A stretch of 64,000 bases of DNA from Vicinamibacteria bacterium (lineage in GTDB: Bacteria; Acidobacteriota; Vicinamibacteria; Vicinamibacterales; JAENWD01), in contig CAVRDA010000021.1 of assembly GCA_963719755.1 (NCBI GenBank), positions 431,403 through 495,402 of the forward strand. Reading direction: 5' to 3'. Of this stretch, positions 1,099 to 55,804 are shown piece after piece. The notes beneath the pieces were generated by a model. The model saw only the letters and a list, made by a program, of their open reading frames with translations. It was not told the origin of the DNA and searched no databases. Every line of letters begins with the position of its first letter. Positions within the stretch are counted from its first letter, which is position 1. The position numbers and the translations under genes were made by a program.

Positions 1099-1151
1099 GG
1101 ACAACTCCTGATGGCGGACTTAGACACCGTCACGATGTGAAAGTCTCACGT

Positions 1152-1249
1152 CCAACCAGATCAACCTGACCAACCGGATCAACCTGATCAACCTGATCAA
1201 CCAACCAACCCGACGTAACCTGACGAAACCCGACGTAACCCGACGCAAC
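1152..1249. repeat. tandem array of degenerate 9-10-nt units (GATCAACCT x about 6, then GACGTAACCY x 4) in a divergent promoter region
   Basis: Read directly: GATCAACCT GACCAACCG GATCAACCT GATCAACCT GATCAACCA ACCAACCC GACGTAACCT GACGAAACCC GACGTAACCC GACGCAAC. No complementary arm is present. Confidence 0.8.
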
Positions 1250-5828: not shown

Positions 5829-5864
5829 GGCCTTCGGCGTTCAGCCTTCAGCCTTCAGACGGCC
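5829..5864. repeat. heptamer ladder GCCTTCG GCGTTCA GCCTTCA GCCTTCA GACGGCC between two convergent stop codons
   Basis: Read directly. The plus-gene stop is TAG 5824-5826. The minus-gene stop (5855-5857) lies inside the last GCCTTCA unit. Confidence 0.75.
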
Positions 5865-19162: not shown

Positions 19163-19284
19163 GTGTCCATGCTGGGTGCTGGGTGCTGGGTGCTGCGTGC
19201 GGTGCTGAGTGCCGAGTGCCGAGTGCTGAGTGAGTGCTGAGTTTGCGTGCCCTGGCACGTAGCACGCAGCACGCAGCACTCACT
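19163..19284. repeat. heptamer-ladder palindrome, GTGCTGA dialect (about 12 units left arm, 4 units right arm)
   Basis: ATGCTGG GTGCTGG GTGCTGG GTGCTGC GTGCG GTGCTGA GTGCCGA GTGCCGA GTGCTGA GTGA GTGCTGA GTTTGC GTGCC ctg GGCAC GTAGCAC GCAGCAC GCAGCAC TCAC. It lies between the glgP stop (19153) and the TetR stop (19280). Confidence 0.85.
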
Positions 19285-22257: not shown

Positions 22258-22528
22258 GGCGAAAACTCCTCTTCGTGTCGAAACGAGCCGACCACGCCAG
22301 ATGCGCGGCCGTTGGCTTTGATGAGTAGCTGGAGCGGTCAGCCGGCGGATGCCGGCCGTGCGACAGGGCCCAGGAAAGCGCGGCGGGCATGATAACACGC
22401 GGGAAGCTCGGCGGCACCCCTGCCACAACCTCAGCCATTCACCTCCGGCACCGGCCGCCAGGGGCTGTTCTGAATCGTTTCTGACTTGCCGCCGGGCCTG
22501 CCGCGTCCCCTTCCGGCCCGTCGATACA

Positions 22529-24761
22529 ATGGCCGTCGTGCCGGAGCAGCCTCGAGGCCGATCGCTCGCGTTCCATCCCAGCGCGCCGGCGGTCGTCCGG
22601 TTCGATCCCTTCCGCTTCGACCTGGTCGACGGATCGCTCTGGCGCGGCTCCGAGGAGATCCGCCTCCCGCCGCGCGCGCTGGTCATCCTCCAGCACCTCG
22701 TCGAGCGCGCCGGCCGCATCGTCGCCAAGCAGGCGCTGATGGAAGCGGCCTGGAAGGACGCGTTCGTCAACGAGGCGTCGCTCACCGAGGCGATCGGCAT
22801 CATCCGGCAGGCACTGGGCGACGATCCGCAGCAGCCGACCTACATCCAGACCGTCCACCGGCGCGGCTATCGCTTCATCGCGCCACTCGCGGTCGACGCG
22901 GCCGCGGCGGCTCCGTCGCCCGTGGAAGCCGAGCCGGCGGCCCAGCCCGTGAGTCCTGCGCCGACCGGCGAGTGCGGAGGCGGCCTCTCTCGCACAGACG
23001 ACGGCCGACAGGCTGGTGCGGCCCGTCGTGCTCGTTGTCGCGACGGCCCTCGTGGCTGCGGCAACGACCGCGATGGCGATGCTTTTGTGGTCGCGGCCAG
23101 GGGCGTCTTCCGCCACTGCCTCCACGACGCGGCTCAGCCTCACGCTCCCTGCCGATCAAGCGCCGGCGCCTGGCCTCAGCGCGCATCCGGTGGTGGCGCT
23201 CACACCCGACGGCACTCGCGTCGTCTACGCAGGCGGCCAGCCGGGCGCGTCGCGCCTGTTCGTGCGCCGGATGGACCAGTTCGCCGCGACGCCCATCCCC
23301 GGCACCGAAGGGGGACACGGGCCCTTCGTGTCGCCGGACGGCGACTGGGTCGCGTTCTTCTCGAGAGGCGCGCTGCGAAAGGTGCGTCTCGACGGCGGCC
23401 AGCCCAGGGTGGTCTGCGAGACGCCGACCGGTGTCGGCGGCGTGTGGCTGTCGAATCGAGGAGATCGTGTTCGTCCCGGACTGGACGAGCCCGCTGATGC
23501 GCGTCAGCGCTGATGGCGGCGCGCCCGTCGTCGCGGCGGCCGCGGCGCCAGGCGTCGGGTACCGGTGGCCCGACCGCGTTGACGAGCGCACCGTGCTGGT
23601 GACGCGCTGGCGATCGTCGGCGCGGTCGGCGGCCGTCGTCGCCATCGACCTCGTGAGCGGAGAAGAGCACGTGGTCGCCAGAGGCGGCCGCGTTCGGCCG
23701 CTTCGCGCCGAGCGGACACGTCCTCTTCGTGCGCGACGGCGCGATCTTCGCCGTCAGGTACGACCACGCCCGTCGCCGGGCGGCAAGCGCGCCGATCCGC
23801 GTCGTCGACGCCGTGCTCACCGGCATGACCGGGTCGGCCCAGCTCGCGATCGCGCCTACCGGCACGATGCTCTACATCGCCGACGCTCCCGGAACGATCG
23901 CGGCGCGTGCTCGCGCGAGTGGACCAGCGCGGGTCGCGTCGTCCCGCTGCCCGCCGAGCCGCGCGTGTTCCGTGCCTTCTCGGTCTGCGGCGATCGACTG
24001 GCGGTGACGATCCACGATCGCGGTCAATCGGATCTGTGGGTGGGGCATCTCGACCGCGCCGCCCTGACCCGGGTGACATCCGAGGGCACCGCCTTCGAGC
24101 CGGCGTGGTCGCCCGATTGCGGCACGCTCGCCTTCGGGTGGAACCGCGAGGAGGGCTACGCGATGTACGCGGTCCGCCCGGGCGCCGGCGATCCACCCGG
24201 GCGGCTGACGAAATCCACGGCGCACGCAGCTACCCGGATCCTGGTCCGGCGACGGGCGGACGCTGGCCTTCGTCGAGCAGCATCCGGACACGAAGACGGA
24301 CATCTGGCTGCTCGAGCCTTCGACGGCCAAAGCAAGGCCGTTCCTGACGACGCCGGCCGAGGAGATTCTGCCGCGCCTTTCGCCCGACGGCCGTTGGCTC
24401 GCCTACGAGTCCGATGCTTCGGGCCGGTTCGAGGTCGAGATCGCCTCGGTCGCCACCGGCGCCCGAACGCAGGTGTCGGGACGGGGCGGGACGTGGCCGG
24501 CATGGTCAGCCGATGGCCGCCAGCTCTTCTACCTCGACGAGGGGACCATCTACCGGGTGGCGTTCGACGAGCGAGAGGGCGAGTCGAGGGCCTCCGATCC
24601 GGTGGCCGTCTACACCAATCCCGACCTTCTACTCTTCAGGCCCGTCGGGCGACGGCTTCGTGATTCTTCGCCGGACCTCCGAGCACCTCCCGTTGACGCG
24701 GGTGGACGTCGTCTTGAACGAGTCGGGGGAGCTGGAACGTCAGTTCGCGGGAAAACCCTAG
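22529..24761 (+). pseudogene. CadC-like winged-helix regulator with TolB-like propeller, interrupted by at least 7 frame changes
   Basis: The VVRFDPFRFD...IQTVHRRGYRF domain, a TM helix and FVSPDG/WSPDC/LSPDGRW propeller motifs can be followed only by hopping among ORFs 22349, 23016, 22486, 23729, 23907, 24473 and 24414. Confidence 0.65.
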
Positions 24762-28431: not shown

Positions 28432-28500
28432 CCCCCGCGAGCGAAAGCGCGAGCGCCCCCCGCGGCGAGCGCCGCGTGAGGGAGCGCGAGGCGCCCCCCG

Positions 28501-32034: not shown

Positions 32035-32051
32035 GTCCCTGCCGCGTCTCA

Positions 32052-32092
32052 AGCGATCTGCGAATGCGCAGAGGACGCAGATTCTCTTGCGG
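32052..32092. repeat. CGCAGAT-dialect hairpin between convergent genes
   Basis: ATCTGCG (32056-32062) pairs with CGCAGAT (32076-32082). GCGCAGA lies in the loop. Confidence 0.55.
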
Positions 32093-32116
32093 TGAGTTGC
32101 CCGCCGCTGACGCGAA

Positions 32117-33815: not shown

Positions 33816-34250
33816 ATGAGCCCAGGCATGGACCCTTCACTCGCCGACCTGTGGCGTCAGGTGGCCTGGCTGCTGATCCTGCCTATTCCCATTGCCTCCA
33901 TCAGCTGGACGGTGACCCACGAGGAGATCTTCCGCGAGCTGCGCGAGTACTGCAGCAATCGGAGCCAGCAGTGCAAACGGCTCATGGAGCGGAAGCTCTT
34001 CTACGTGATGACGTGCGAGTACTGCTTCAGCCACTGGGTGGCGCTGGGCGCGGTGCTGCTGACCGGCTACCGGCTGCTGCTTCCCGATTGGCGCGGCGCG
34101 CTCATCGGCTATTTCGCGCTGACGGCCATCGCCAACCTTTACCTGAGCCTGTACGGCCGGCTGCGCGTGGACATCAAGGCGGAACGCGTCCAGATCGCAG
34201 CGGTCGAGGACCAGATCTCGTCGTCGCGCGATGATTTTCGGACAGCTAGG
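33816..34250 (+). CDS. hypothetical membrane protein (3-prime end uncertain; the ORF reads into the next gene without a stop)
   Basis: MSPGMDPSLADLWRQVAWLLILPIPIASISW... contains two CxxC-like pairs (CSNRSQQC, CEYC). Confidence 0.4.
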
Positions 34251-34274
34251 CCATCGTCGGCCGGCGTTCACGTG

Positions 34275-35174
34275 ATGCGTGCGCTGAAGACGATCCTCGA
34301 GCTCTCGAAGCAGGCCCTCCTCGCGGGATGGGAGGACAACGTCCCGCGGATGGGCGCGTCGGTCGCCTACTACACGCTGTTCGCGATCGCGCCGGTGCTG
34401 CTCGTCGCGATCGCGATCGCCGGGACGATCTTCGGACCCGAAGCGGTACGCGGCGAGATCGTCGGTCAACTCGACGGGCTGCTGGGGCGCGACGGCGCCG
34501 CCGCGGTGCAGGCACTGCTCGAGGGGGCGCGCCCGCCGGCAGGGAGGAACCCTGGCCACGGTCGTCGGCACGGTGACCTTCGTGCTCGCGGCGACCGGCG
34601 CGTTCCTCGAACTGCAGGCGGCACTCGACAAGATCTGGCGCGTCGAGCCCGATCCCGGCGCGAACGTCTCGGCGTTCCTCAAGGCCCGCGCTCAATCCTT
34701 CGGACTGGTGGTCGGCATCGGCTTCCTGCTGCTGGTGTCGCTGGCGGTGAACGCGGCGCTCGCCGCGGCCAGCACAGTGGGTCGGTCAGCACGCGACCGC
34801 CCTTCCCATCCTCTGGAACGCCCTCAACATCGTCGTGTCGCTGATCGTCGTCACGCTGCTCTTCGCGATGCTCTTCAAGTTCCTGCCTGACGTCCGCCTG
34901 CACTGGCGCCACGTGCTGGTCGGGGCGCTGGTGACGGCGGTCCTGTTCACCATCGGCAAGCAGGTGATCGGCCTCTATCTCGGCCAGAGCGCCACCGCGT
35001 CCTCGTACGGCGCCGCCGGGTCGGTCATCGTGCTGCTGCATCTGGGTCTACTACTCCGCCCAGATCGTGCTGCTCGGCGCGGAGTTCACGCGGGCCTACA
35101 CGAAGTACCTCGGCTCGCGGCCGAAACCCGAGTCTTTCGCCAAGCGCGACCCGCACGCGGCCGCGAAGCCGTAG
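34275..35174 (+). CDS. YihY/BrkB family membrane protein; three frame breaks (near 34535, 34775, 35040)
   Basis: MRALKTILELSKQALLAGWEDNVPRMGASVAYYTLFAIAPVLL..., continued in ORFs 34573 and 34835 and in a third frame ending WVYYSAQIVLLGAEFTRAY. Confidence 0.7.
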
Positions 35175-35224
35175 CCAGCTCATCAATACGCTTCGGAACC
35201 GTCGCGAGACTGGCTGCGTATACT

Positions 35225-35258
35225 ATCTTGCGTGACAAGATATCTTGTGATATATCAC
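35225..35258 (+). promoter_or_regulatory. two perfect palindromes (ATCTTGcgtgaCAAGAT; GTGATATATCAC) overlapping a -10-like TATATC 6 nt upstream of the padR ATG
   Basis: The sequence reads tatactATCTTGCGTGACAAGATatcttGTGATATATCACtgacATG. Candidate PadR auto-operator and leaderless promoter. Confidence 0.45.
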
Positions 35259-35262
35259 TGAC

Positions 35263-35622
35263 ATGGCGGTTTCCCCGGGACGAGACGACGAGAGGCGAGG
35301 CATCGAGCGGGAGCTCAAGCGCGGGTCGCTGGAGCTGATCGTCCTGCACCTGCTGTCGCCGGGAGAGGCCTACGGCTACGAGATCGTCTCGAAGCTGACC
35401 TCCCAGACCAACGGCGCGCTGGAAGTGACCGACGGAACGCTCTACCCGGTGCTGTACCGGCTCGAGCGCGCCGGCTTCGTGGAAGTCCGGTGGGAGACAC
35501 CGGAGCGCGGCGTGCCGCGCAAGTACTACAGCCTCACGGCGTCCGGCCGCGAAGAGCTGGCACGGCTGACCGGGGAGTGGACGGCCTTTGCAAAGGCAAT
35601 GGCCAAGCTGCTGCGAAGTTGA
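35263..35622 (+). CDS. PadR family transcriptional regulator
   Basis: Intact 119-aa ORF with GYEIVSKL...TDGTLYPVLYRLERAGFV. Confidence 0.85.
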   Translation: MAVSPGRDDERRGIERELKRGSLELIVLHLLSPGEAYGYEIVSKLTSQTNGALEVTDGTLYPVLYRLERAGFVEVRWETPERGVPRKYYSLTASGREELARLTGEWTAFAKAMAKLLRS

Positions 35623-35631
35623 GAGGAGACC

Positions 35632-36228
35632 ATGACGACCACCGCTGATTTCTTCATCAACCGGGTACTGGACGCGATGCCTTCGTCGACGCCGCGGCGT
35701 CAGCAGATTGCGCTGGAGCTGCGCGGCCACATCGAGGAGCGCCTGGCCGCCGGCCTGCCGCTCGACGAGGTCCTGCACCAGTTGGGCGATCCGCGGTCGC
35801 TGGCCGAGTCGTACCTGTCGGCCGTCCCGCTGGTGGCCGGGTCTTTCTGGGCGCGCGCCGTGGCGCGCGTCGTCGACTACGCCGTATCGGTCGCCGTAGT
35901 GGCGCCGTTCGGGGTCGCAGTCTGGCTGACGAGCGACTCGAAGCTCTTTCCCCTCTGGCTCTTCGCGTACATCTTCACCGCCAGCCTGATGATCGCCGCG
36001 TATCCAATCGTCGCCGAATATCGGTACGGCAAGACCTGGGGCAAGCACCTGATGGGCCTGCGCGTCGTCCGCGAATCGGGCGCGAGGATCAGCCTCGGGC
36101 AGTCGATCGTCCGGCAGCTGCCGGTGTTCCTGCAGGTGATCTGGATCGACGCGCTGTTCGCGCTCTTCACCGACAAGAGCCAGCGCGCGTTCGAGCTGCT
36201 GTCGAAAACGCGGGTGGTGAGGGTGTAG
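35632..36228 (+). CDS. PadR-associated membrane protein with a C-terminal RDD domain
   Basis: Intact 198-aa ORF. N-terminal cytoplasmic helix region (IALELRGHIEERLAAG), then RDD-type TM segments (YRYGKTWGKHLMGLRVV). Confidence 0.65.
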   Translation: MTTTADFFINRVLDAMPSSTPRRQQIALELRGHIEERLAAGLPLDEVLHQLGDPRSLAESYLSAVPLVAGSFWARAVARVVDYAVSVAVVAPFGVAVWLTSDSKLFPLWLFAYIFTASLMIAAYPIVAEYRYGKTWGKHLMGLRVVRESGARISLGQSIVRQLPVFLQVIWIDALFALFTDKSQRAFELLSKTRVVRV

Positions 36229-36342
36229 GGTTGTGGGGTTGTAGGGTTGTAGGGTTGTAGGGTTGTAGGTTGTAGGGTTGTAAGGTCGTCAGGGCGCGAA
36301 ATCCACGCCCCTACAACCCCACAACCCAACAACCCACGACCC
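36222..36342. repeat. heptamer/octamer-ladder palindrome, GGGTTGTA dialect, G-quadruplex-capable on both strands
   Basis: GGGTTGT GGGGTTGTA (GGGTTGTA)x3 GGTTGTA GGGTTGTA AGG...GGGCG cgaaatcca CGCCC CTACAACCCC ACAACCC AACAACCC ACGACCC. It lies between TAG 36226-36228 and the minus-gene stop at 36343. Confidence 0.85.
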
Positions 36343-38872
36343 TTATTCGTACCGCAGCGCCATGATCGGGTTGATCTGGCTGGCGCGGCGCGCCGGGATC
36401 AAGCCGGCCGCGGTCGAGACCAGCGTCAGGAGCACGACCGTCGCGATGGCGATGCCCGGATCGTGGGCCTCGATGCCGTAGAGCTGAGACGCGACGTAGC
36501 GGCCAAGTCCCAGGGCAGCCGGGATACCGACTGCGAGGCCGATGACCAGCAGCAGCAGCACCTCCCGCATCACCATCCAGGTCAACTGCGACGGCTGCGC
36601 GCCGAGCGCGAGGCGGATCCCAAGCTCCTTCCGGCGCCGCGCGACGACGAACGCCATCACGCCATAGAGGCCAATCGACGCCAGCAGCGTCGCCAGCAGG
36701 CCGAAGCCGGCCGACAGCAGCGCCACCAGCCGATCGCTCAGCAGCGTCTCGTCCAACTGCCCCTGCAGCGTCTTCAGGCTGTAGACGGGCATTGCCGGAT
36801 CGAGCCGGCGCACCTCGTTGCGAATGAGGCTGTAGGCGCCTGCCGACGACGTCGCAGTGCGCATGTAGATGGCGCTGCTGCCGCGGCCCCAGGCGGGAAT
36901 GAACACCTGGCGGCGGACGCCTTCGCGCGGCCCCTCGTAGAGCGAGTCGGCCACCATCCCGATGATCTCGATGTTCATCTTCGTGTCGGGCCCGTCGCCC
37001 CAGCCAAGCCGCTTGCCGATGGGGCTGGCGCCCTTGAAGAAGTGCCGCGCGAATTTCTGGTTCACGATCGCCACGCGCGATGCAGGTCAGGTTTCGTGTC
37101 GTCGAACTGGTCCCGTCCTTCCGAATCGCGGAAGTCGCGCCCCTCGAGGATGGGGATCTGCATCGTCTTGAAGTAGCCCGGCGACAGGGCGTTCATGAAC
37201 GCCTGCATGTCCTCGCCGTCGCCGGCCTTGTGACCCTCGACCGACATCGTGCTGTCCCATTCGTCGCCGCTCAGGATCGAGACAGAGGCCTGGCCCGCCG
37301 ACTTCACGCCCGGCGCCGACCGGAGGTTCTGGAGCAGGTCGCGATAGAACAGCGCGCCGCGCTCGTCGGTGTAGCCGTTCAGCGCCGGCGAGAGCTGGAA
37401 GGTCACGAGGTTGTCGAGGTCGACGCCCGGATCCGTGGTCCGCAGGTTCTGCAGGCTTCGGACGAACAGGCCGGCGCCGAAGAGCAGGAGGAAGCTGAGC
37501 GCGACTTGCGCGGTGACCAGCCCCTTGCGAAGGAACAGCGACCCGCCGGCTCCCGCGATGGAACCGACCGTGTCCTTCAGCGTCGTCCAGGGGTCGGGCC
37601 GGCTCGCGCGCAACGCCGGCAACAGGCCGAAGACGACGCCGGTCGCCAGGGTGAGAGCGAACGTGAAGCCCGAGGATCCGCAGGTCCGGCTCGGCCTGGA
37701 TCTGCAGCGGGTTGCTCTCTGACGGGATGAGCGCCAGCAGGCCGCGCGTGAGCGCGACGGCGACGAACACGCCGAGCACTCCGCCAATGGCCGAGAGCAG
37801 CAGGCTTTCGACCAGCAGCTGCCGCACCAGGCGGCCCCTGGTCGCGCCGAGCGACAGCCGGACCGCGATCTCGCGCTGGCGCATGAACCCTCGGGCGATG
37901 AGCAGGTTGGCGACGTTGGCGCAGGCGATGAGCAGCACCAGGCCGACCATGCACATCAGGACGACGAGCGCGGTGGAGAAGTCGTTGCGCAGGCTGGAAT
38001 AGCCGATGTCCGCCTTCTCGACGTGCAGCGTCCCCTTCAGGAACTGCTCCTTCGAGTAGGCAGACCAATCCTTGGCCGCCGGCAGCGTCGCTTCGTACTT
38101 CCGGATTTGCGTGAACAGGCCCTGCATCGGCGGCTGAGCGCTTTCCACGGTCTGACCCGGCTTCAGCCGCGCGAACACCTGCACCCAGCGCGAGCGCCGA
38201 TCGTCGGCCCGCATCCAGGTCCATTCGGGCAGCACCACCGGCTTCATCAGGATCGGCACGCGGATCTGCGGCGACCGCGCCGGGTCGAGGCCGTCGAATC
38301 CGGCCGCCGAGACCCCGACGATGGTCATCGGGTAGTTGTTGATCTGCACTTTCTTGCCGATGACGCCGGGGTCGCGGGCGAAGCGCGACACCCAGTAGTC
38401 GTACGAGAGGACAGCGACGGGGTGGCCGTTGTAGACCTGGTCGTCTTCCTTCGAGCTGAGCACGCGCCCGATGGCGGGCCTGACGCCCAGCATCGAGAAG
38501 TAGTTGCCCGACACCATCTCGGCATCGAGCCGCTCGGTCTGGTTGTCGACCGCAAACGACACCGAGACCAGCCGGCGGGCGATGACCTGCGAGAGCGGCG
38601 CCGCCTTCTGCTGGTAGTCCTGGTAGATGGGATACGAGTGCATCCGCGATCCCATGTTGCTGCCGTTGTGGTTGCCGCGCTGGATGAGCATCACCAGCTC
38701 TTCCGGGGCGCGCACGGGCAGCTTCCTCAGCAGGATCTGGTCGATCAGCGTGAAGATCGCCGTATTGGCGCCGATGCCGAGTCCCAGCGACAGCGTCGCG
38801 ACGATGGCAAAGAGCGGGCTGCGATCGCAGGCCGCGGAGCGCGAAGCGGAGGTCGGCCAGAAGGGAAGTCAT
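36343..38872 (-). CDS. ADOP-family duplicated MacB/FtsX-type permease (no adjacent padR); three frame breaks (near 38815, 37690, 37080)
   Basis: MTSLLADLRFALRGLRSQP..GIGANTAIF N-terminus and two FtsX-type modules (ACANVANLLIARG...; ...GIRLALGAQ...). ORFs 37577, 37087, 37062 and 36343 join here. Confidence 0.8.
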
Positions 38873-39084: not shown

Positions 39085-40351
39085 ATGTCATTCGATTCAA
39101 AGGGATCTGCCCGACGCGAGCCGCGCAGGGTCGTCGTCACGGGCGTGGGCTTGGTGTCTCCGGTCGGCATCGGCACGGAGGAGACCTGGCAGGCCGTGCT
39201 TGCCGGCCGATCGGGCATCGCGCCGCATCACGTTGTTTGACGCCTCGCGCCACAACGCGCGCTTTGCCGGCGAGGTGAAGGACTTCGACCCGACGAGGTG
39301 GATCGACCGCAAGGACGTCAAGAAGTGCGGCCGCTTCATCCAGTTCGCCATTGCGGCGACGTCGATGGCGGTGGAGGCAAGCGGGCTCAAGGTCGAACCA
39401 GCGAACGCGGCCCGGGTCGGGGTGATCATCGGCAGCGGCATCGGCGGGTTCGAGGTCATCGAACGCGAGCACCGCGTCCTGCTGGAACGCGGCCCCGACC
39501 GCGTCTCGCCGTTTTTCATCCTGTCGTCGATCGTGAACCTGGCTGCCGGGCAGGTGTCGGTCCGCCTGGGTGCCAAAGGACCGAACTCCGCGGTGGCCAC
39601 GGCCTGCACGACCGGGGCCCATGCCATCGGCGATGCGTACCGGCTCATCCAGGGAGGCTGGGCGGACGCGATGGTCTGCGGCGGCACCGAGGCCAGCATC
39701 ACGCCGCTCGGCATTGCCGGCTTCGCCTCGATGCGGGCGCTTTCGACGCGCAACGACGATCCGGCTCGCGCCAGCCGCCCGTGGGACCAGGATCGCGACG
39801 GCTTCGTCGTCGGGGAAGGTGCGGGCATCCTGATTCTCGAGGCCCGCGACCACGCCGAAGAACGCGGCGCCACCGTGCTCGCGGAGCTGATCGGCTACGG
39901 CATGAGCGCGGACGCGCACCACCTCACCGCGCCCCCCGAGGATGGCGACGGGGTCGGCCGCGTGATGGCGGCGACGCTCGAAGACGCCGGGCTCTCGCCC
40001 GGCGACGTGCAATACGTCAACGCGCACGCCACCTCGACGCCGCTCGGCGACAAGGCGGAAGCCACCGCGATTTGCCGTGTGTTCGGCAGCCACGCCGCAG
40101 GCATGCTCGTCAGCTCGACCAAGTCGATGACGGGCCACCTGCTCGGCGGCGCCGGCGCGCTCGAAGCTGGCCTGACCGTGCTGTCGCTCCGCGATCAGAT
40201 CGCGCCGCCGACGATCAACCTCGATCGGCAGGACGCCGACAACACGCTGGACCTCGTGCCGCACACCGCCAGGCCGCTCGCGATCACGCACGCGATGACC
40301 AACTCGTTCGGGTTCGGCGGCACCAACGCGAGTTTGATCTTCAAGCGCTGA
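39085..40351 (+). CDS. fabF: beta-ketoacyl-ACP synthase II; 1-nt insertion near 39222
   Basis: RRVVVTGVGLVSPVG N-terminus from ATG 39085, then ORF 39200..40351 with ATACTTGAH, HGTSTP-like HATSTPLGD and GFGGTNASL. Confidence 0.9.
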
Positions 40352-40354
40352 AAC

Positions 40355-40519
40355 GTGCTGCGTGCTTTGTGCACCGTGCCACGTGCGGTGCTGCGTGCTT
40401 CGTGCTTCGTGCACGTGCGTTCTCCGTGCAGTGCCCGTGCGGTGCTGCGGGCACGAAGCACCGCACGCGGCACGTGGCACCAGCACCGCACGCGCACGCA
40501 GCACCGCACGCAGCACGTG
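40355..40519. repeat. heptamer-ladder palindrome, GTGCTGC dialect (about 95-nt left arm, about 70-nt right arm) with nested perfect stems
   Basis: cgtgcggtgct (40436-40446) pairs with agcaccgcacg (40457-40467). cgtgcggtgctgcg (40382-40395) pairs with cgcagcaccgcacg (40497-40510). It lies between the fabF stop and the convergent stop at 40529. Confidence 0.9.
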
Positions 40520-40528
40520 GCGAACGCC

Positions 40529-41095
40529 TTACGTGCGCAACGCCGCCAGCGCGCCGGTCCACCGGCGCAGCTCGTCCAGCATCACGATGGCGGACTTCTC
40601 CTGGGCCGCGGTCGCCTTGAACGCGCCGGAGGCTTTGTCGATCTGCTGGCTGAACATCGGCAGCGCCACCGCTTCGACGATCGGCACGATCTTCACCGCG
40701 GCAAGCAGCGTCTTGGTCATCTGCGCCGCGCGCAAGCCGCCGGAGATGCCGCCGTAGCTCACCAGCCCCGCGGCCTTGTAGTTCCACTCGGTGTACAGGT
40801 GGTCGATCGCGTTCACCAGCGCCGGCGGCGAGCTGTAGTTGTATTCCGGCGTGACGATGGCGAATGCGTCGAGCGCCGAGATCGCGGCGCTCCATTGCCT
40901 GGTCTTCTCGCTCTCGGTACTGATGCAGCCGCGGGTGCACCGGCTCCTCGAGCAGCGGGAGCGCCCACTCCTTGAGATCGACCCTTCGACCTCGAAGCCG
41001 CCGTGCGTTCGCGCGACTTCGATGAACCAGTCGGCGACCGGCCCGCCGGCGCGGCCCTTACGGACGCTGGCGATGATGACTCCAAGACGGGGCAT
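40529..41095 (-). CDS. NADPH-dependent FMN reductase family protein; two compensating frame shifts (near 40983 and 40917)
   Basis: MPRLGVIIASVRKGR...; TPEYNYSSPPALVNAIDHLY. The segment VDLKEWALPLLEEPVHPRLHQY is readable only in another frame. SD AAGGAG upstream. Confidence 0.75.
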   Translation of the reverse strand: MPRLGVIIASVRKGRAGGPVADWFIEVARTHGGFEVEGSISRSGRSRCSRSRCTRGCISTESEKTRQWSAAISALDAFAIVTPEYNYSSPPALVNAIDHLYTEWNYKAAGLVSYGGISGGLRAAQMTKTLLAAVKIVPIVEAVALPMFSQQIDKASGAFKATAAQEKSAIVMLDELRRWTGALAALRT

Positions 41096-45476: not shown

Positions 45477-45670
45477 GTGCCGCGTGCTTCGTGCCATGTG
45501 CCTCGTCCGTGCTTCGTGCCTCGTGCCGCGTCCGGTGCTTCGTGCCTGGTCCCTTCGTGCAGAGCCGCCGCCCCGGGGACCGCAGCCGGCACGCGGCCCG
45601 CACCCAGCACCCGGCCCATGACACCGCACGCGGCACCGCACCCAGCACGCGGCACCAAGCACTCAGCACC
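45477..45670. repeat. heptamer-ladder palindrome, GTGCTTC dialect (about 85-nt arms) in a divergent intergenic region
   Basis: GTGCCGC GTGCTTC GTGCCAT GTGCCTC GTCC GTGCTTC GTGCCTC GTGCCGC ... then GCAC GCGGCCC GCAC CCAGCAC ... GCGGCAC CGCAC CCAGCAC GCGGCAC CAAGCAC TCAGCAC. Confidence 0.85.
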
Positions 45671-54360: not shown

Positions 54361-54696
54361 TTATGCGCGATTGAGGTTCACGACGTGGGTGATCGCAGCC
54401 GAGAGCCGCGCCCAGTTCTCCGTTTCCTTCGCGAGGTGGCGGTGCCCGAGGCGGCTGAGCGCGTAGAACTTCGCGCGGCGGTTGTTCTCGGTGACGCGCC
54501 ACGTCGCGGTCACCCAGCCTTCCTGTTCCAGCTTGTGCAGGGCCGGGTAGAGCGACCCGTCGCTCACCTGCAGCGTGTTGCCCGACACCTGCTTCAGCCG
54601 CTGGCTGATGGCATGGCCGTTCAGCGGCTCGAGCGCGAGTATCTTCAGCAGCAGCAGGTCCAGCGTGCCCTGGACGAGATCCTGGGGTTTGCTCAT
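54361..54696 (-). CDS. PadR family transcriptional regulator (acidobacterial type, upstream of ADOP)
   Basis: MSKPQDLVQGTLDLLLLKILALEPLNGHAISQRL...SDGSLYPALHKLEQEGWV. The stop lies 15 nt upstream of the ADOP start. Confidence 0.85.
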   Translation of the reverse strand: MSKPQDLVQGTLDLLLLKILALEPLNGHAISQRLKQVSGNTLQVSDGSLYPALHKLEQEGWVTATWRVTENNRRAKFYALSRLGHRHLAKETENWARLSAAITHVVNLNRA

Positions 54697-54743: not shown

Positions 54744-54757
54744 GCAAGGGGAGGACG

Positions 54758-54879
54758 TGTAGGGATTGTAGGGTTGTAGGTTGTGAGGTTGTAGGGTGGC
54801 CGTTGTAGGGTTGTGCCGTAGGTAGGGAGATACCCCAGTCCTCCCTACAACCCCACGACCCTCACAACCCCACAACCCT
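54758..54879. repeat. heptamer/octamer-ladder palindrome, GGGTTGTA dialect
   Basis: TGTAGGGAT TGTAGGGT TGTAGGT TGTGAGGT TGTAGGG..TTGTAGGGT... with core GTAGGGAG (54822-54829) pairing CTCCCTAC (54841-54848), then ACAACCCCACGACCCTCACAACCCCACAACCC. Confidence 0.85.
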
Positions 54880-54884
54880 CTTCC

Positions 54885-55688
54885 TTACTGCGGCATCGGG
54901 ATCACGCCGAAGGCCTGATACAGCTTCTCCATGTTGGCGCGGAGCGGGCCGAACGCGGACAGCGTCGTCGGCGACGCACCGGCGGCGGTGGTGTCCTTGC
55001 TGAGCTTTCCGGCGCTGTCGAACATCAGCCGCGCCTCGGCGGTCGCAGGCTTGTCGTCGTCGATGCGCGACTTGACGGTCTTGCACGCCTTGGACAGATC
55101 GTCGGCCTGCTTCTTCAGCGCGTCGCGCTGCGGTTGCGCGATGGCCTGATCGCGCTCGATCGCGTTCTTGACATCGTCAGCCTGCTTGGCCGCCAGCTCC
55201 GCCGCCTCCGCGGTTTCGTTGTCGTTCATGCGGCGCGCAGCGCCATCGGCGGGCATCGGAAAGGTCGTGCCGTACGCCGAGGCGAGCGTGCCCATCAGGC
55301 CGGCGAGACGATCCCATTCGCTCGAGCCCTTCATGGTGTTGGGCTGCCCCTTCATGTAGCCGTTGATGTCAGTCCCCTGCCTCAGCACTGTCAGCGCTTC
55401 GCTGCTCGCCGAGTAGTCGGACGAAAAGCGCTCCTTGAGGCGATTCACGTTCTCCTGCAAGTCGTCGAGGTACTGGTCGACTTTCACCTCGCCGCGCGGC
55501 CCTCGCACGATCGAGTTCTTGAAATCATTGTCGAGGGCATCCTCGAACCGATCGCGGCCTTGGTGGACGTCTTCGATCAGCTTCTTCAGGTCGTTGTCGT
55601 TCAGCCGCGGAACGTCCTGGGCGCCGACGATGCCGGCGACGAGGATTGCCGCGGCGACGAGAAGACCGTTTCGGTGGAATCTGGACAT
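54885..55688 (-). CDS. hypothetical secreted protein
   Basis: Intact from ATG 55688 (MSRFHRNGLLVAAAILVAGIVGAQD signal peptide). Helical, charge-rich. No family recognised. Confidence 0.55.
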   Translation of the reverse strand: MSRFHRNGLLVAAAILVAGIVGAQDVPRLNDNDLKKLIEDVHQGRDRFEDALDNDFKNSIVRGPRGEVKVDQYLDDLQENVNRLKERFSSDYSASSEALTVLRQGTDINGYMKGQPNTMKGSSEWDRLAGLMGTLASAYGTTFPMPADGAARRMNDNETAEAAELAAKQADDVKNAIERDQAIAQPQRDALKKQADDLSKACKTVKSRIDDDKPATAEARLMFDSAGKLSKDTTAAGASPTTLSAFGPLRANMEKLYQAFGVIPMPQ

Positions 55689-55804
55689 GTGCTTACCCCC
55701 CACGCCCTGTGCCTCTAACCGCTGCGCCTCTCGGCGCATCGGCGCAGCATACGCCCGCGGGAGCTTCGGAGGAGTGAGACCTTGGTCCTATTTCCGGGAG
55801 TGCG

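Follow-up and report, generated by a model that had tools for sequence, protein, structure and literature searches.

What property is maintained in the gap between two converging genes when that gap is filled, from one stop codon to the other, by a tandem repeat and its own complement? The question is raised by a 64,000-nt stretch of DNA from a Vicinamibacteria bacterium (contig CAVRDA010000021.1, positions 431,403 to 495,402), here called the window, whose own coordinates are used throughout. Within it, an array of the octamer GGGTTGTA and a shorter array of the complementary unit occupy the entire 114-nt gap between a plus-strand RDD-family membrane protein gene and a minus-strand ADOP-family permease gene. 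The original prediction, made from the letters alone, described this element as a ladder palindrome with G-quadruplex (G4) spacing on both strands and proposed that each converging transcript sets up a competition between a G4 and a long hairpin. We confirm the observation; the interpretation is supported in part. In a close relative this site keeps a hairpin but not the G4 motif, an indication that it is the hairpin that is maintained.

The repeat pair between the RDD and ADOP genes

Tandem Repeats Finder (TRF) reports an array of period 8 over 36220-36286, with 8.6 copies of AGGGTTGT and a score of 106, and C-rich arrays of the same period at 36303-36342. Parsed unit by unit, the left arm consists of AGGGTGTA, GGGTTGTG, four copies of GGGTTGTA, two 7/8-nt variants and GGTCGTCA. 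The last codons of the RDD gene and its TAG stop (36226-36228) lie inside the first, degenerate unit, and at the other end the ADOP stop codon (36343-36345, minus strand) adjoins the last unit of the right arm. The outer 35 nt of the two arms (36220-36254 against 36309-36343) are 86% complementary, and the ladder palindrome with complementary G- and C-rich arms is real. The array is longer than composition predicts, as is characteristic of long simple-sequence repeats with units of 5-11 nt. A two-unit pattern, GGGTTGTAGGGTTGT, allowed up to three mismatches, matches 17 times in the window against 0.30 expected. All 17 matches are confined to 36220-36335 and 54763-54878, and this number was reached in none of 100 dinucleotide-preserving shuffles.

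The G-rich arm comes first on both strands, and each arm is G-rich on the sense strand of the gene whose stop codon it adjoins. The genes converge as predicted, RDD (PF06271) from the left and ADOP (TIGR03434) from the right, and both transcripts carry a G/U-rich arm followed by a C/A-rich arm. The resemblance to eukaryotic telomeric repeats that had been pointed out is one of form; a telomere-like origin was rejected, as the element is internal and paired with its own complement.

The second copy that had been reported is also real. It lies at 54755-54880, 18 kb away, and about 82% of it can be aligned to the first, owing only to the common unit, as the centres of the two copies are unrelated. 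Its hairpin is calculated at -73.8 kcal/mol (z = -4.3), and its C-rich arm begins 4 nt past the stop codon of a minus-strand gene, 54885-55739.

Hairpin folding and the G-quadruplex motif

In copy 1, G3-4 tracts start at 36228, 36235, 36244, 36252 and 36260. We therefore count five tracts in 36228-36262 where six had been claimed, the sixth being obtained only by including 36221-36223 in the coding end of the RDD gene. The extra tract at 36275-36277 is present, as are the C3-4 tracts at 36308-36342, of which there are five. Each strand of copy 1 contains one run that satisfies the canonical G3+N1-7 x4 rule; in copy 2 the plus strand has no canonical four-tract run, the only one being on the minus strand. 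The G4Hunter scoring that had been suggested as a check gives extremes of 1.76 and -1.88 for copy 1, against a cut-off of 1.5 in absolute value, but the other ladder palindromes of the window peak below 1.5.

The RNA of copy 1 folds at -85.7 kcal/mol (z = -7.9) when read from the plus strand and at -69.7 kcal/mol (z = -6.0) when read from the minus strand, and none of 200 shuffles matched these folds. We assessed G4 formation in silico with ViennaRNA in its G4-aware mode, the G4 energy model of which is approximate. In both copies and on both strands, the minimum-energy fold of the full RNA is free of G4. When a G4 is forced on the outer G tracts and combined with a shorter hairpin, the best fold reaches -67.1 against -85.7 kcal/mol and is thus about 19 kcal/mol worse; even in the isolated arm, the gain from a G4 is just 4-6 kcal/mol. 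Among the surplus inner G units there are no more than three GGG tracts, and the loops between them measure 12 and 14 nt; a G4 is therefore incompatible with the full stem.

The two transcripts differ as they grow. Equilibrium folds give the RDD transcript a G4 in its minimum-energy structure at nascent lengths of 80-140 nt, when only the G arm is available; the G4 is lost on emergence of the C arm. The ADOP transcript contains a G4 at no nascent length; the minus strand, which was predicted to be equally G4-capable, does have the canonical run, but its nascent RNA is not predicted to use it. Under DNA parameters, the best structure of the plus strand combines a G4 with a shorter hairpin, by a narrow margin (-38.7 against -35.9 kcal/mol). 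What is left of the proposed competition is a conceivable kinetic transient on the RDD transcript, not a stable state. The G4 motif is probably a by-product of the GGG in the repeat unit, because of the energy margin of the hairpin, the poverty of the other ladder palindromes in G4 motifs, and two comparisons given below, the swap of filler in a close relative and an 11-nt gap in a distant one.

Nor is the idea that a G4 might compete with a stem-loop in inverted G-rich repeat pairs new. Rehm et al. 2015 (PMC4692102) described G-rich heptamer repeats (GGGAATC, GGGGA(C/T)T) in Xanthomonas and Nostoc that lie no more than 50 bp from stop codons, with 70-75 convergent inverted pairs, G-first, per Xanthomonas genome and a preference for four-unit arrays in that genus. 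These heptamer repeats form G4 in vitro as judged by circular dichroism (CD), and the authors note the possible competition between stem-loop and G4 in inverted repeats. They found that repeat number differs among relatives and that the repeats are not associated with mobile elements, and they left the function unassigned.

The present element is a repeat pair of the Rehm class in all structural criteria save unit sequence and host, and belongs to a different family. It shares with that class a tandem unit of 6-9 nt that contains a G3 tract and is present at least four times (here 8 nt and 8.6 copies), an intergenic location within 50 bp of a stop codon or overlapping it, G-richness on the sense strand, and a second array nearby on the opposite strand, in convergent orientation. 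On the other hand, its unit is the octamer GGGTTGTA and not GGGNATC or GGGGA(C/T)T, and its host carries ADOP and an acidobacterial-type PadR, which are acidobacterial signature genes. At least five ladder families are present here, the G-rich one among them, and most are unable to form G4. What is more, the filler is replaced by another family in a relative of about 95% identity, whereas 83% of the Xcc repeats are retained in Xac. With this element, the G-rich repeat pairs of Xanthomonas and Nostoc gain an octamer family found in an acidobacterial-type genome. It is chiefly useful as a natural control on the G4 idea, in that a relative keeps the hairpin without the G4 motif.

Turnover of convergent gaps and its possible explanations

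The element is ordinary for its own class; the unexpected part is the selective and complete turnover of convergent gaps between near-identical genomes. Through a homologue 98% identical to the RDD protein we reached contig ena:ERZ25039541:contig_44731 (L051), which is collinear with 25715-46232 of the window at 92-96% nucleotide identity (about 95% overall). At its RDD/ADOP gap the flanks are identical up to both stop codons, and between them lies, as filler, another palindrome, 178 nt long (L051 10601-10778), in which 10-mers of the GGTTTCGTCA type precede CAACCCGATC and AACCCGACGT units. This filler folds at -91.3 kcal/mol (z = -4.9) and contains no canonical G4 run, its G4Hunter score peaking at 0.72 (G strand) and 1.08 (C strand). 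By blastn, both of its arms match 1149-1249 of the window, an unrelated locus, at 80-82% identity (E = 9e-15 and 3e-8) with the sub-blocks in the same order, which indicates that the family is dispersed and is copied between loci. Among more distant relatives, L055, whose RDD protein is 69% identical, has the same convergent RDD/ADOP pair separated by 11 nt; the gap in L054 is 25 nt long and holds three GTTACGA units, and in L052 and L056 the genes at this site overlap.

Over the 20.6 kb in common with L051, all four convergent gaps (coordinates in Table 1) have been replaced or heavily rearranged. Two are unalignable, one is aligned by low-complexity similarity only and one is 65% identical with indels, and the replacement spans stop codon to stop codon. 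Each of the 13 co-directional or divergent gaps, in contrast, aligns contiguously with its flanks at 85-97%. Had the four changes been scattered at random over the 17 gaps, the chance of hitting just the four convergent ones would be 1 in 2380, for what is a small sample. If the pattern holds genome-wide, it would be a tractable case for studying the birth and replacement of terminator-like hairpins, and for asking by what means transcription ends in high-GC bacteria that lack classical terminators.

The reading that we favor, with a probability of about one half, is that of a hairpin-forming inverted repeat pair in a 3'-3' gap that would act as a bidirectional RNA 3'-end or termination hairpin under fast turnover. 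The operative property would be a hairpin, long and imperfect, with about 35 paired positions, which the transcript of either direction could form just past the stop codon. Such a hairpin could mark and protect the RNA 3' ends of both genes and may help to stop or insulate the two converging transcriptions, limiting read-through into the opposing gene, with a G4 as at most a transient structure on the nascent RDD transcript. Slippage of short units within the arms would build the arrays, copying between the arms by template switching would keep them complementary, and there would be some copying between loci; together these processes would replace the filler at a much higher rate than the flanking genes. 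We propose slippage and copying because the arms are unequal, unit families are many and turnover is wholesale. Mutation by template switching is an established type at quasipalindromes.

Termination at this site, if it occurs, would be U-tract-independent or Rho-assisted, since classical hairpin-plus-U-tract terminators are not in excess in the window: in 1-60000, 16 hairpins with a T-tract were found against about 22 expected in shuffled sequence (scan counts of 3, 6 and 7 against 6.5, 8.2 and 7.4), and none of the consensus terminator matches in that range is at a gene end. A survey (PMC13613805) reports longer stems and shorter U tracts in the terminators of high-GC species, and stem-loops that mark 3' ends in intrinsic as well as in Rho-dependent termination. 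Given also that classical terminators are not in excess, this makes a 3'-end role a reasonable conjecture. A known parallel is that of bidirectional intrinsic terminators between convergent genes (Ju, Li and Liu 2019, PMC6814526), in which, as here, one palindrome in the gap serves both transcripts and presents a G-rich 5' arm and a C-rich 3' arm both ways. Canonical terminators of this kind have short stems with flanking A and T tracts, whereas the present stem consists of repeats, extends over about 35 bp and lacks a U-tract at its flanks.

Several observations weigh against a termination hairpin. A scan with the consensus for intrinsic terminators (a GC-rich stem of about 5-14 bp, a loop of 3-8 nt and a U-tract directly after) gave no match at the element, which has a stem of about 35 bp and an internal region of 54 nt. 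A proper U-tract is absent, as the plus-strand RNA continues with UUAUUCGU and the minus-strand RNA has GUUUUC about 20 nt past the stem. The stem is far beyond those of known intrinsic terminators and is a likely RNase III substrate. The arms are of unequal size, with about 9 units on the left and about 4.5 on the right, which fits ongoing slippage better than a tuned structure. The 11-nt gap in L055 argues that the element is dispensable. Copy 2 lies in a co-directional gap, between two minus-strand genes and about 58 nt upstream of the PadR gene, and the palindrome at 45477-45670 is in a divergent gap, so the architecture is not confined to 3'-3' junctions.

The main rival, possible though on balance doubtful, is that slippage of 7-10-nt units and template switching between inverted arms make and remake ladder palindromes in unconstrained DNA, for example in a 3'-3' gap that has neither promoter nor ribosome-binding site, so that the element is a functionless by-product and hairpin and G4 are both incidental. 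A lack of constraint would account for the change of 4 of 4 convergent gaps but 0 of 13 others, the 11 nt that suffice in L055, the unequal arms, the several unit families side by side and the mini-ladders in tiny gaps (window 5830-5858, L054 2076-2100). MacGregor 2015 (PMC4679880), describing TAACTGA intergenic repeats of Beggiatoaceae and proposing that they bind a post-transcriptional regulator, relays from Mrazek, Guo and Shah 2007 that simple-sequence repeats of 5-11 nt, most commonly heptamers, are a slippage-prone class found in scattered bacterial lineages. Long simple-sequence repeats of this kind, among them the short tandemly repeated repetitive (STRR) heptamers, resemble the present element in being short-unit arrays over-represented in the non-coding DNA of scattered lineages, with periods that are not multiples of three, slippage as the presumed generator and positions adjoining start or stop codons. 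STRR heptamers are said to have been described in cyanobacteria by Mazel and colleagues in 1990.

The repeats as described in those lineages are direct arrays, whereas here an array and its complement form a long hairpin and the pairing is conserved across families. That the arms of the long elements are complementary down to mirrored variant units (-124.9 kcal/mol) speaks against a mere by-product, as does the order of the arms: the G/T-rich arm comes first in six of seven independent palindromes, which is unexpected under pure drift, although the sample is small. In Xanthomonas, moreover, repeat-bearing loci are more conserved than controls (PMC4692102). Finally, slippage and switching account for the origin of the element and not for its effect, and no mRNA stem of -86 kcal/mol can be inert. 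The sole exception to the arm order, with its C/A-rich arm first, is the ladder palindrome at L051 6313-6461, which consists of TCCCAAC and then TTGGGAG units; the window has an unrelated 82-nt filler at the corresponding gap.

Unlikely, in our view, is an active process, at work in this acidobacterial lineage, that repeatedly rewrites 3'-3' gaps with tandem-unit hairpins drawn from a small set of families copied between loci. If it exists, it would amount to non-autonomous elements of a new kind, or to a palindrome generator linked to repair or replication, rather than ordinary slippage, and the GGGTTGTA element would be one allele.

Slightly less likely again is a non-autonomous mobile element of the kind of REPINs (hairpin-forming doublets of repetitive extragenic palindromic, REP, sequences) or MITEs (miniature inverted-repeat transposable elements), copied between loci by an enzyme acting in trans and landing with a preference for harmless sites. 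Such an element would explain why the composite arm of CAACCnGAT and AACCCGACGT occurs at unrelated loci (window 1149-1249, L051 10601-10778), why two GGGTTGTA copies and three GTGCNNN copies are found in the window, and why fillers are swapped wholesale at orthologous sites. GTAG, a tetranucleotide typical of REPs, is present in every GGGTTGTA unit. REPs, REPINs and bacterial interspersed mosaic elements (BIMEs) are also like the present element in forming extragenic hairpin doublets of about 100 nt, often at gene 3' ends or in convergent gaps, and in having several families per genome. REPINs (Bertels and Rainey 2011, PMC3116915) are likewise hairpin-forming doublets in extragenic space. REPINs, however, are near-identical copies of a fixed 20-40-nt palindrome and depend on a REP-associated tyrosine transposase (RAYT), whereas here we find tandem 8-mers in two copies within 64 kb that align through the unit alone, with neither core nor ends in common. 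There are no target-site duplications or defined ends: at three sites the boundaries are stop codons on both sides, and relatives have another filler or an 11-nt gap. Scans of roughly 20 flanking open reading frames (ORFs) against Pfam and NCBIfam revealed no transposase, RAYT or reverse transcriptase, the window not having been searched exhaustively. Rehm et al. (PMC4692102) likewise report no association of their repeats with mobile elements.

Improbable, too, is the proposal that a G4 in the G-rich arm, in RNA or in non-template DNA, competes with the hairpin and thereby tunes pausing, termination or mRNA stability. The canonical run on both strands of copy 1, the G4 in the nascent RDD transcript before its C arm, the DNA parameters for the plus strand, the behavior of the related heptamers by CD and the Xanthomonas preference for four-unit arrays (PMC4692102) are all in its favor. 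It is opposed by the lead of the RNA hairpin, the ADOP transcript without a G4, the plus strand of copy 2 without a canonical run, the long loops of the inner surplus tracts, and a motif that is absent from the orthologous element of L051 and absent or weak in the other ladder palindromes. Both the mobile element and the protein-binding array that follows are less likely than the functionless by-product; in our overall account it is the G4 proposal that we call least supported.

That the units, spaced 7-10 nt, form a periodic array for a protein (Rho on the C-rich, G-poor arm, or a Csp-, S1- or CsrA-like protein) is very improbable: the minus-strand transcript of both GGGTTGTA copies does end in a surplus of C units (about 9 C against 4.5 G units), leaving about 35 nt of CAACCCUA repeats predicted to be unpaired, and regulator binding has been proposed for other intergenic heptamer repeats (PMC4679880), but the unit sequence is conserved neither across families nor at the orthologous site, so no single binding specificity fits, and most units are sequestered in the stem, with no candidate protein identified.

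Other ladder palindromes, distribution and neighboring genes

The features of the window are collected in Table 1.

Table 1. Repeat elements, flanking genes and convergent gaps in the window, with the corresponding gaps of L051
Feature	Position	Strand	Evidence or remark
Single C/A-rich ladder arm, CAACCnGAT block then AACCCGACGT block	1149-1249		
GTGCTGG/GTGCTGA heptamers, then GCACGCA	19170-19279		Fills convergent gap between glucan phosphorylase gene (+) and TetR-like gene (-); z = -3.1
Convergent gap	28432-28500		L051 2715-2785
Convergent gap	32035-32116		L051 6312-6484
RDD-family membrane protein gene	35632-36228	+	ORF list; Pfam RDD PF06271, E = 5e-17, plus HAAS
Copy 1, left arm, about 9 tandem 8-nt units, G/T-rich on + strand	36220-36290		TRF, unit parse
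Convergent gap (RDD/ADOP)	36229-36342		L051 10601-10778
Copy 1, non-repetitive center; GGGCG and CGCCC able to form a small apical stem	36291-36307		Sequence, minimum-energy structures
Copy 1, right arm, about 4.5 complementary units (CCCCTACAACCCCACAACCCAACAACCCACGACCC), pairs with outer 35 nt of left arm	36308-36342		Inverted repeat I1, TRF, C tracts
ADOP-family duplicated permease gene	36343-38715	-	Pfam FtsX, MacB_PCD; TIGR03434, E = 1e-80 and 4e-98
Convergent gap	40352-40528		L051 14783-14906
GTGCNNN heptamer ladder palindrome	40354-40521		Fills convergent gap between fabF (+) and FMN reductase gene (-)
GTGCNNN-family ladder palindrome	45477-45670		Divergent gap upstream of PQQ dehydrogenase gene; kept with indels in L051
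Acidobacterial-type PadR regulator gene	54361-54696	-	TIGR03433 padR_acidobact, E = 2e-40
Copy 2, G/T-rich arm, degenerate GGGTTGTA units	54755-54827		Sequence, TRF, tracts
Copy 2, C-rich arm	54833-54880		Canonical G4 run on minus strand; sequence, TRF, G4 count

Ladder palindromes are the most structured intergenic gaps of the window (z = -6.8, -7.5, -5.6 and -3.1), in a ranking that rests on a rough, composition-based gene map, and they occupy all three of its long convergent gaps (114, 126 and 177 nt). Both arms of any one locus come from one unit family, though at least five families exist. In the GTGCNNN palindromes the GTGC is constant and the next three nucleotides vary, the variable triplets being mirrored between the arms. 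Mirroring of variant units is seen in the inverted repeats I9 and I13, which are 92% complementary over 26 nt and 24 nt, respectively. The region 40345-40535 folds at -124.9 kcal/mol (z = -5.8). The palindromes at 19170-19279 and 40354-40521 contain no canonical G4 run and peak at absolute G4Hunter values of 1.12 and 0.48, whereas at 45477-45670 there is a single canonical run, of C tracts and confined to the minus strand, and the peak is 1.24. An arm-swap folding test on nine GGGTTGTN palindromes was uninformative, the units being too alike (mean of -51.0 kcal/mol with their own arms and -46.9 kcal/mol with swapped arms, sd 8.7).

Heptamer runs resembling GTGCNNN also occur in L006 (Acidobacteriota) and L012 (Bacteroidales). 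The mini-ladders, three or four heptamer units in very short gaps directly after stop codons (GCCTTCA in the window, GTTACGA in L054), may be early stages of the process that forms ladder palindromes. Another filler family, very GC-rich (0.86) and made of GCGAGCG and GAGGCGCC motifs, is found in convergent gaps at different loci, window 28432-28500 and L051 14783-14906.

Three exact GGGTTGTA units in a row are found at 50 loci in a collection of species-representative genomes, in a scan made with this octamer alone. The phyla include Armatimonadota, Cyanobacteria, Bacteroidota, Acidobacteriota, Chloroflexota and Proteobacteria, and one Armatimonadota metagenome-assembled genome carries such arrays on at least nine contigs. 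The arrays are mostly intergenic and mixed with the variants GGGTTGAA, GGGTTTTA, GGGTGGTA and GGGTCGTA, and some have a complementary ladder downstream. A palindromic pattern was found at ten soil-metagenome loci, with arms of GGGTTGTT, GGGTTGTC or GGGTTGTA adjoining start or stop codons. An assembly artefact was ruled out, as isolate genomes and independent metagenome contigs from short reads show the same architecture.

At 23 of the 50 loci, the start of the array coincides with the end of a sense ORF of at least 80 aa, and an 8-nt unit brings TAG into all three frames within three units. A rule by which the arrays supply stop codons in three frames was rejected, since the ladder families GTGCTTC and GGTTTCGTCA contain no stop codon and long spurious ORFs are common in high-GC DNA. 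CRISPR arrays, integron attC sites and dif sites were likewise discarded, because the units are contiguous and without spacers. The whole window gave no match in Rfam 15 at gathering thresholds, and in the literature the unit as a string of letters was encountered in primers only.

Two of the neighboring genes, a BrkB-like gene (33816-35338) and the ADOP gene, each consist of two adjacent ORFs, the ADOP gene being split near 37074-37087; the calls in L051 are longer. The splits are likely frameshift errors of long-read assembly, or else the genes are pseudogenes. In a 2-kb stretch that is empty in the gene map, the longest ORF, at 22486-24663, encodes 725 aa without a Pfam match and may be spurious, given the high GC content of the DNA.

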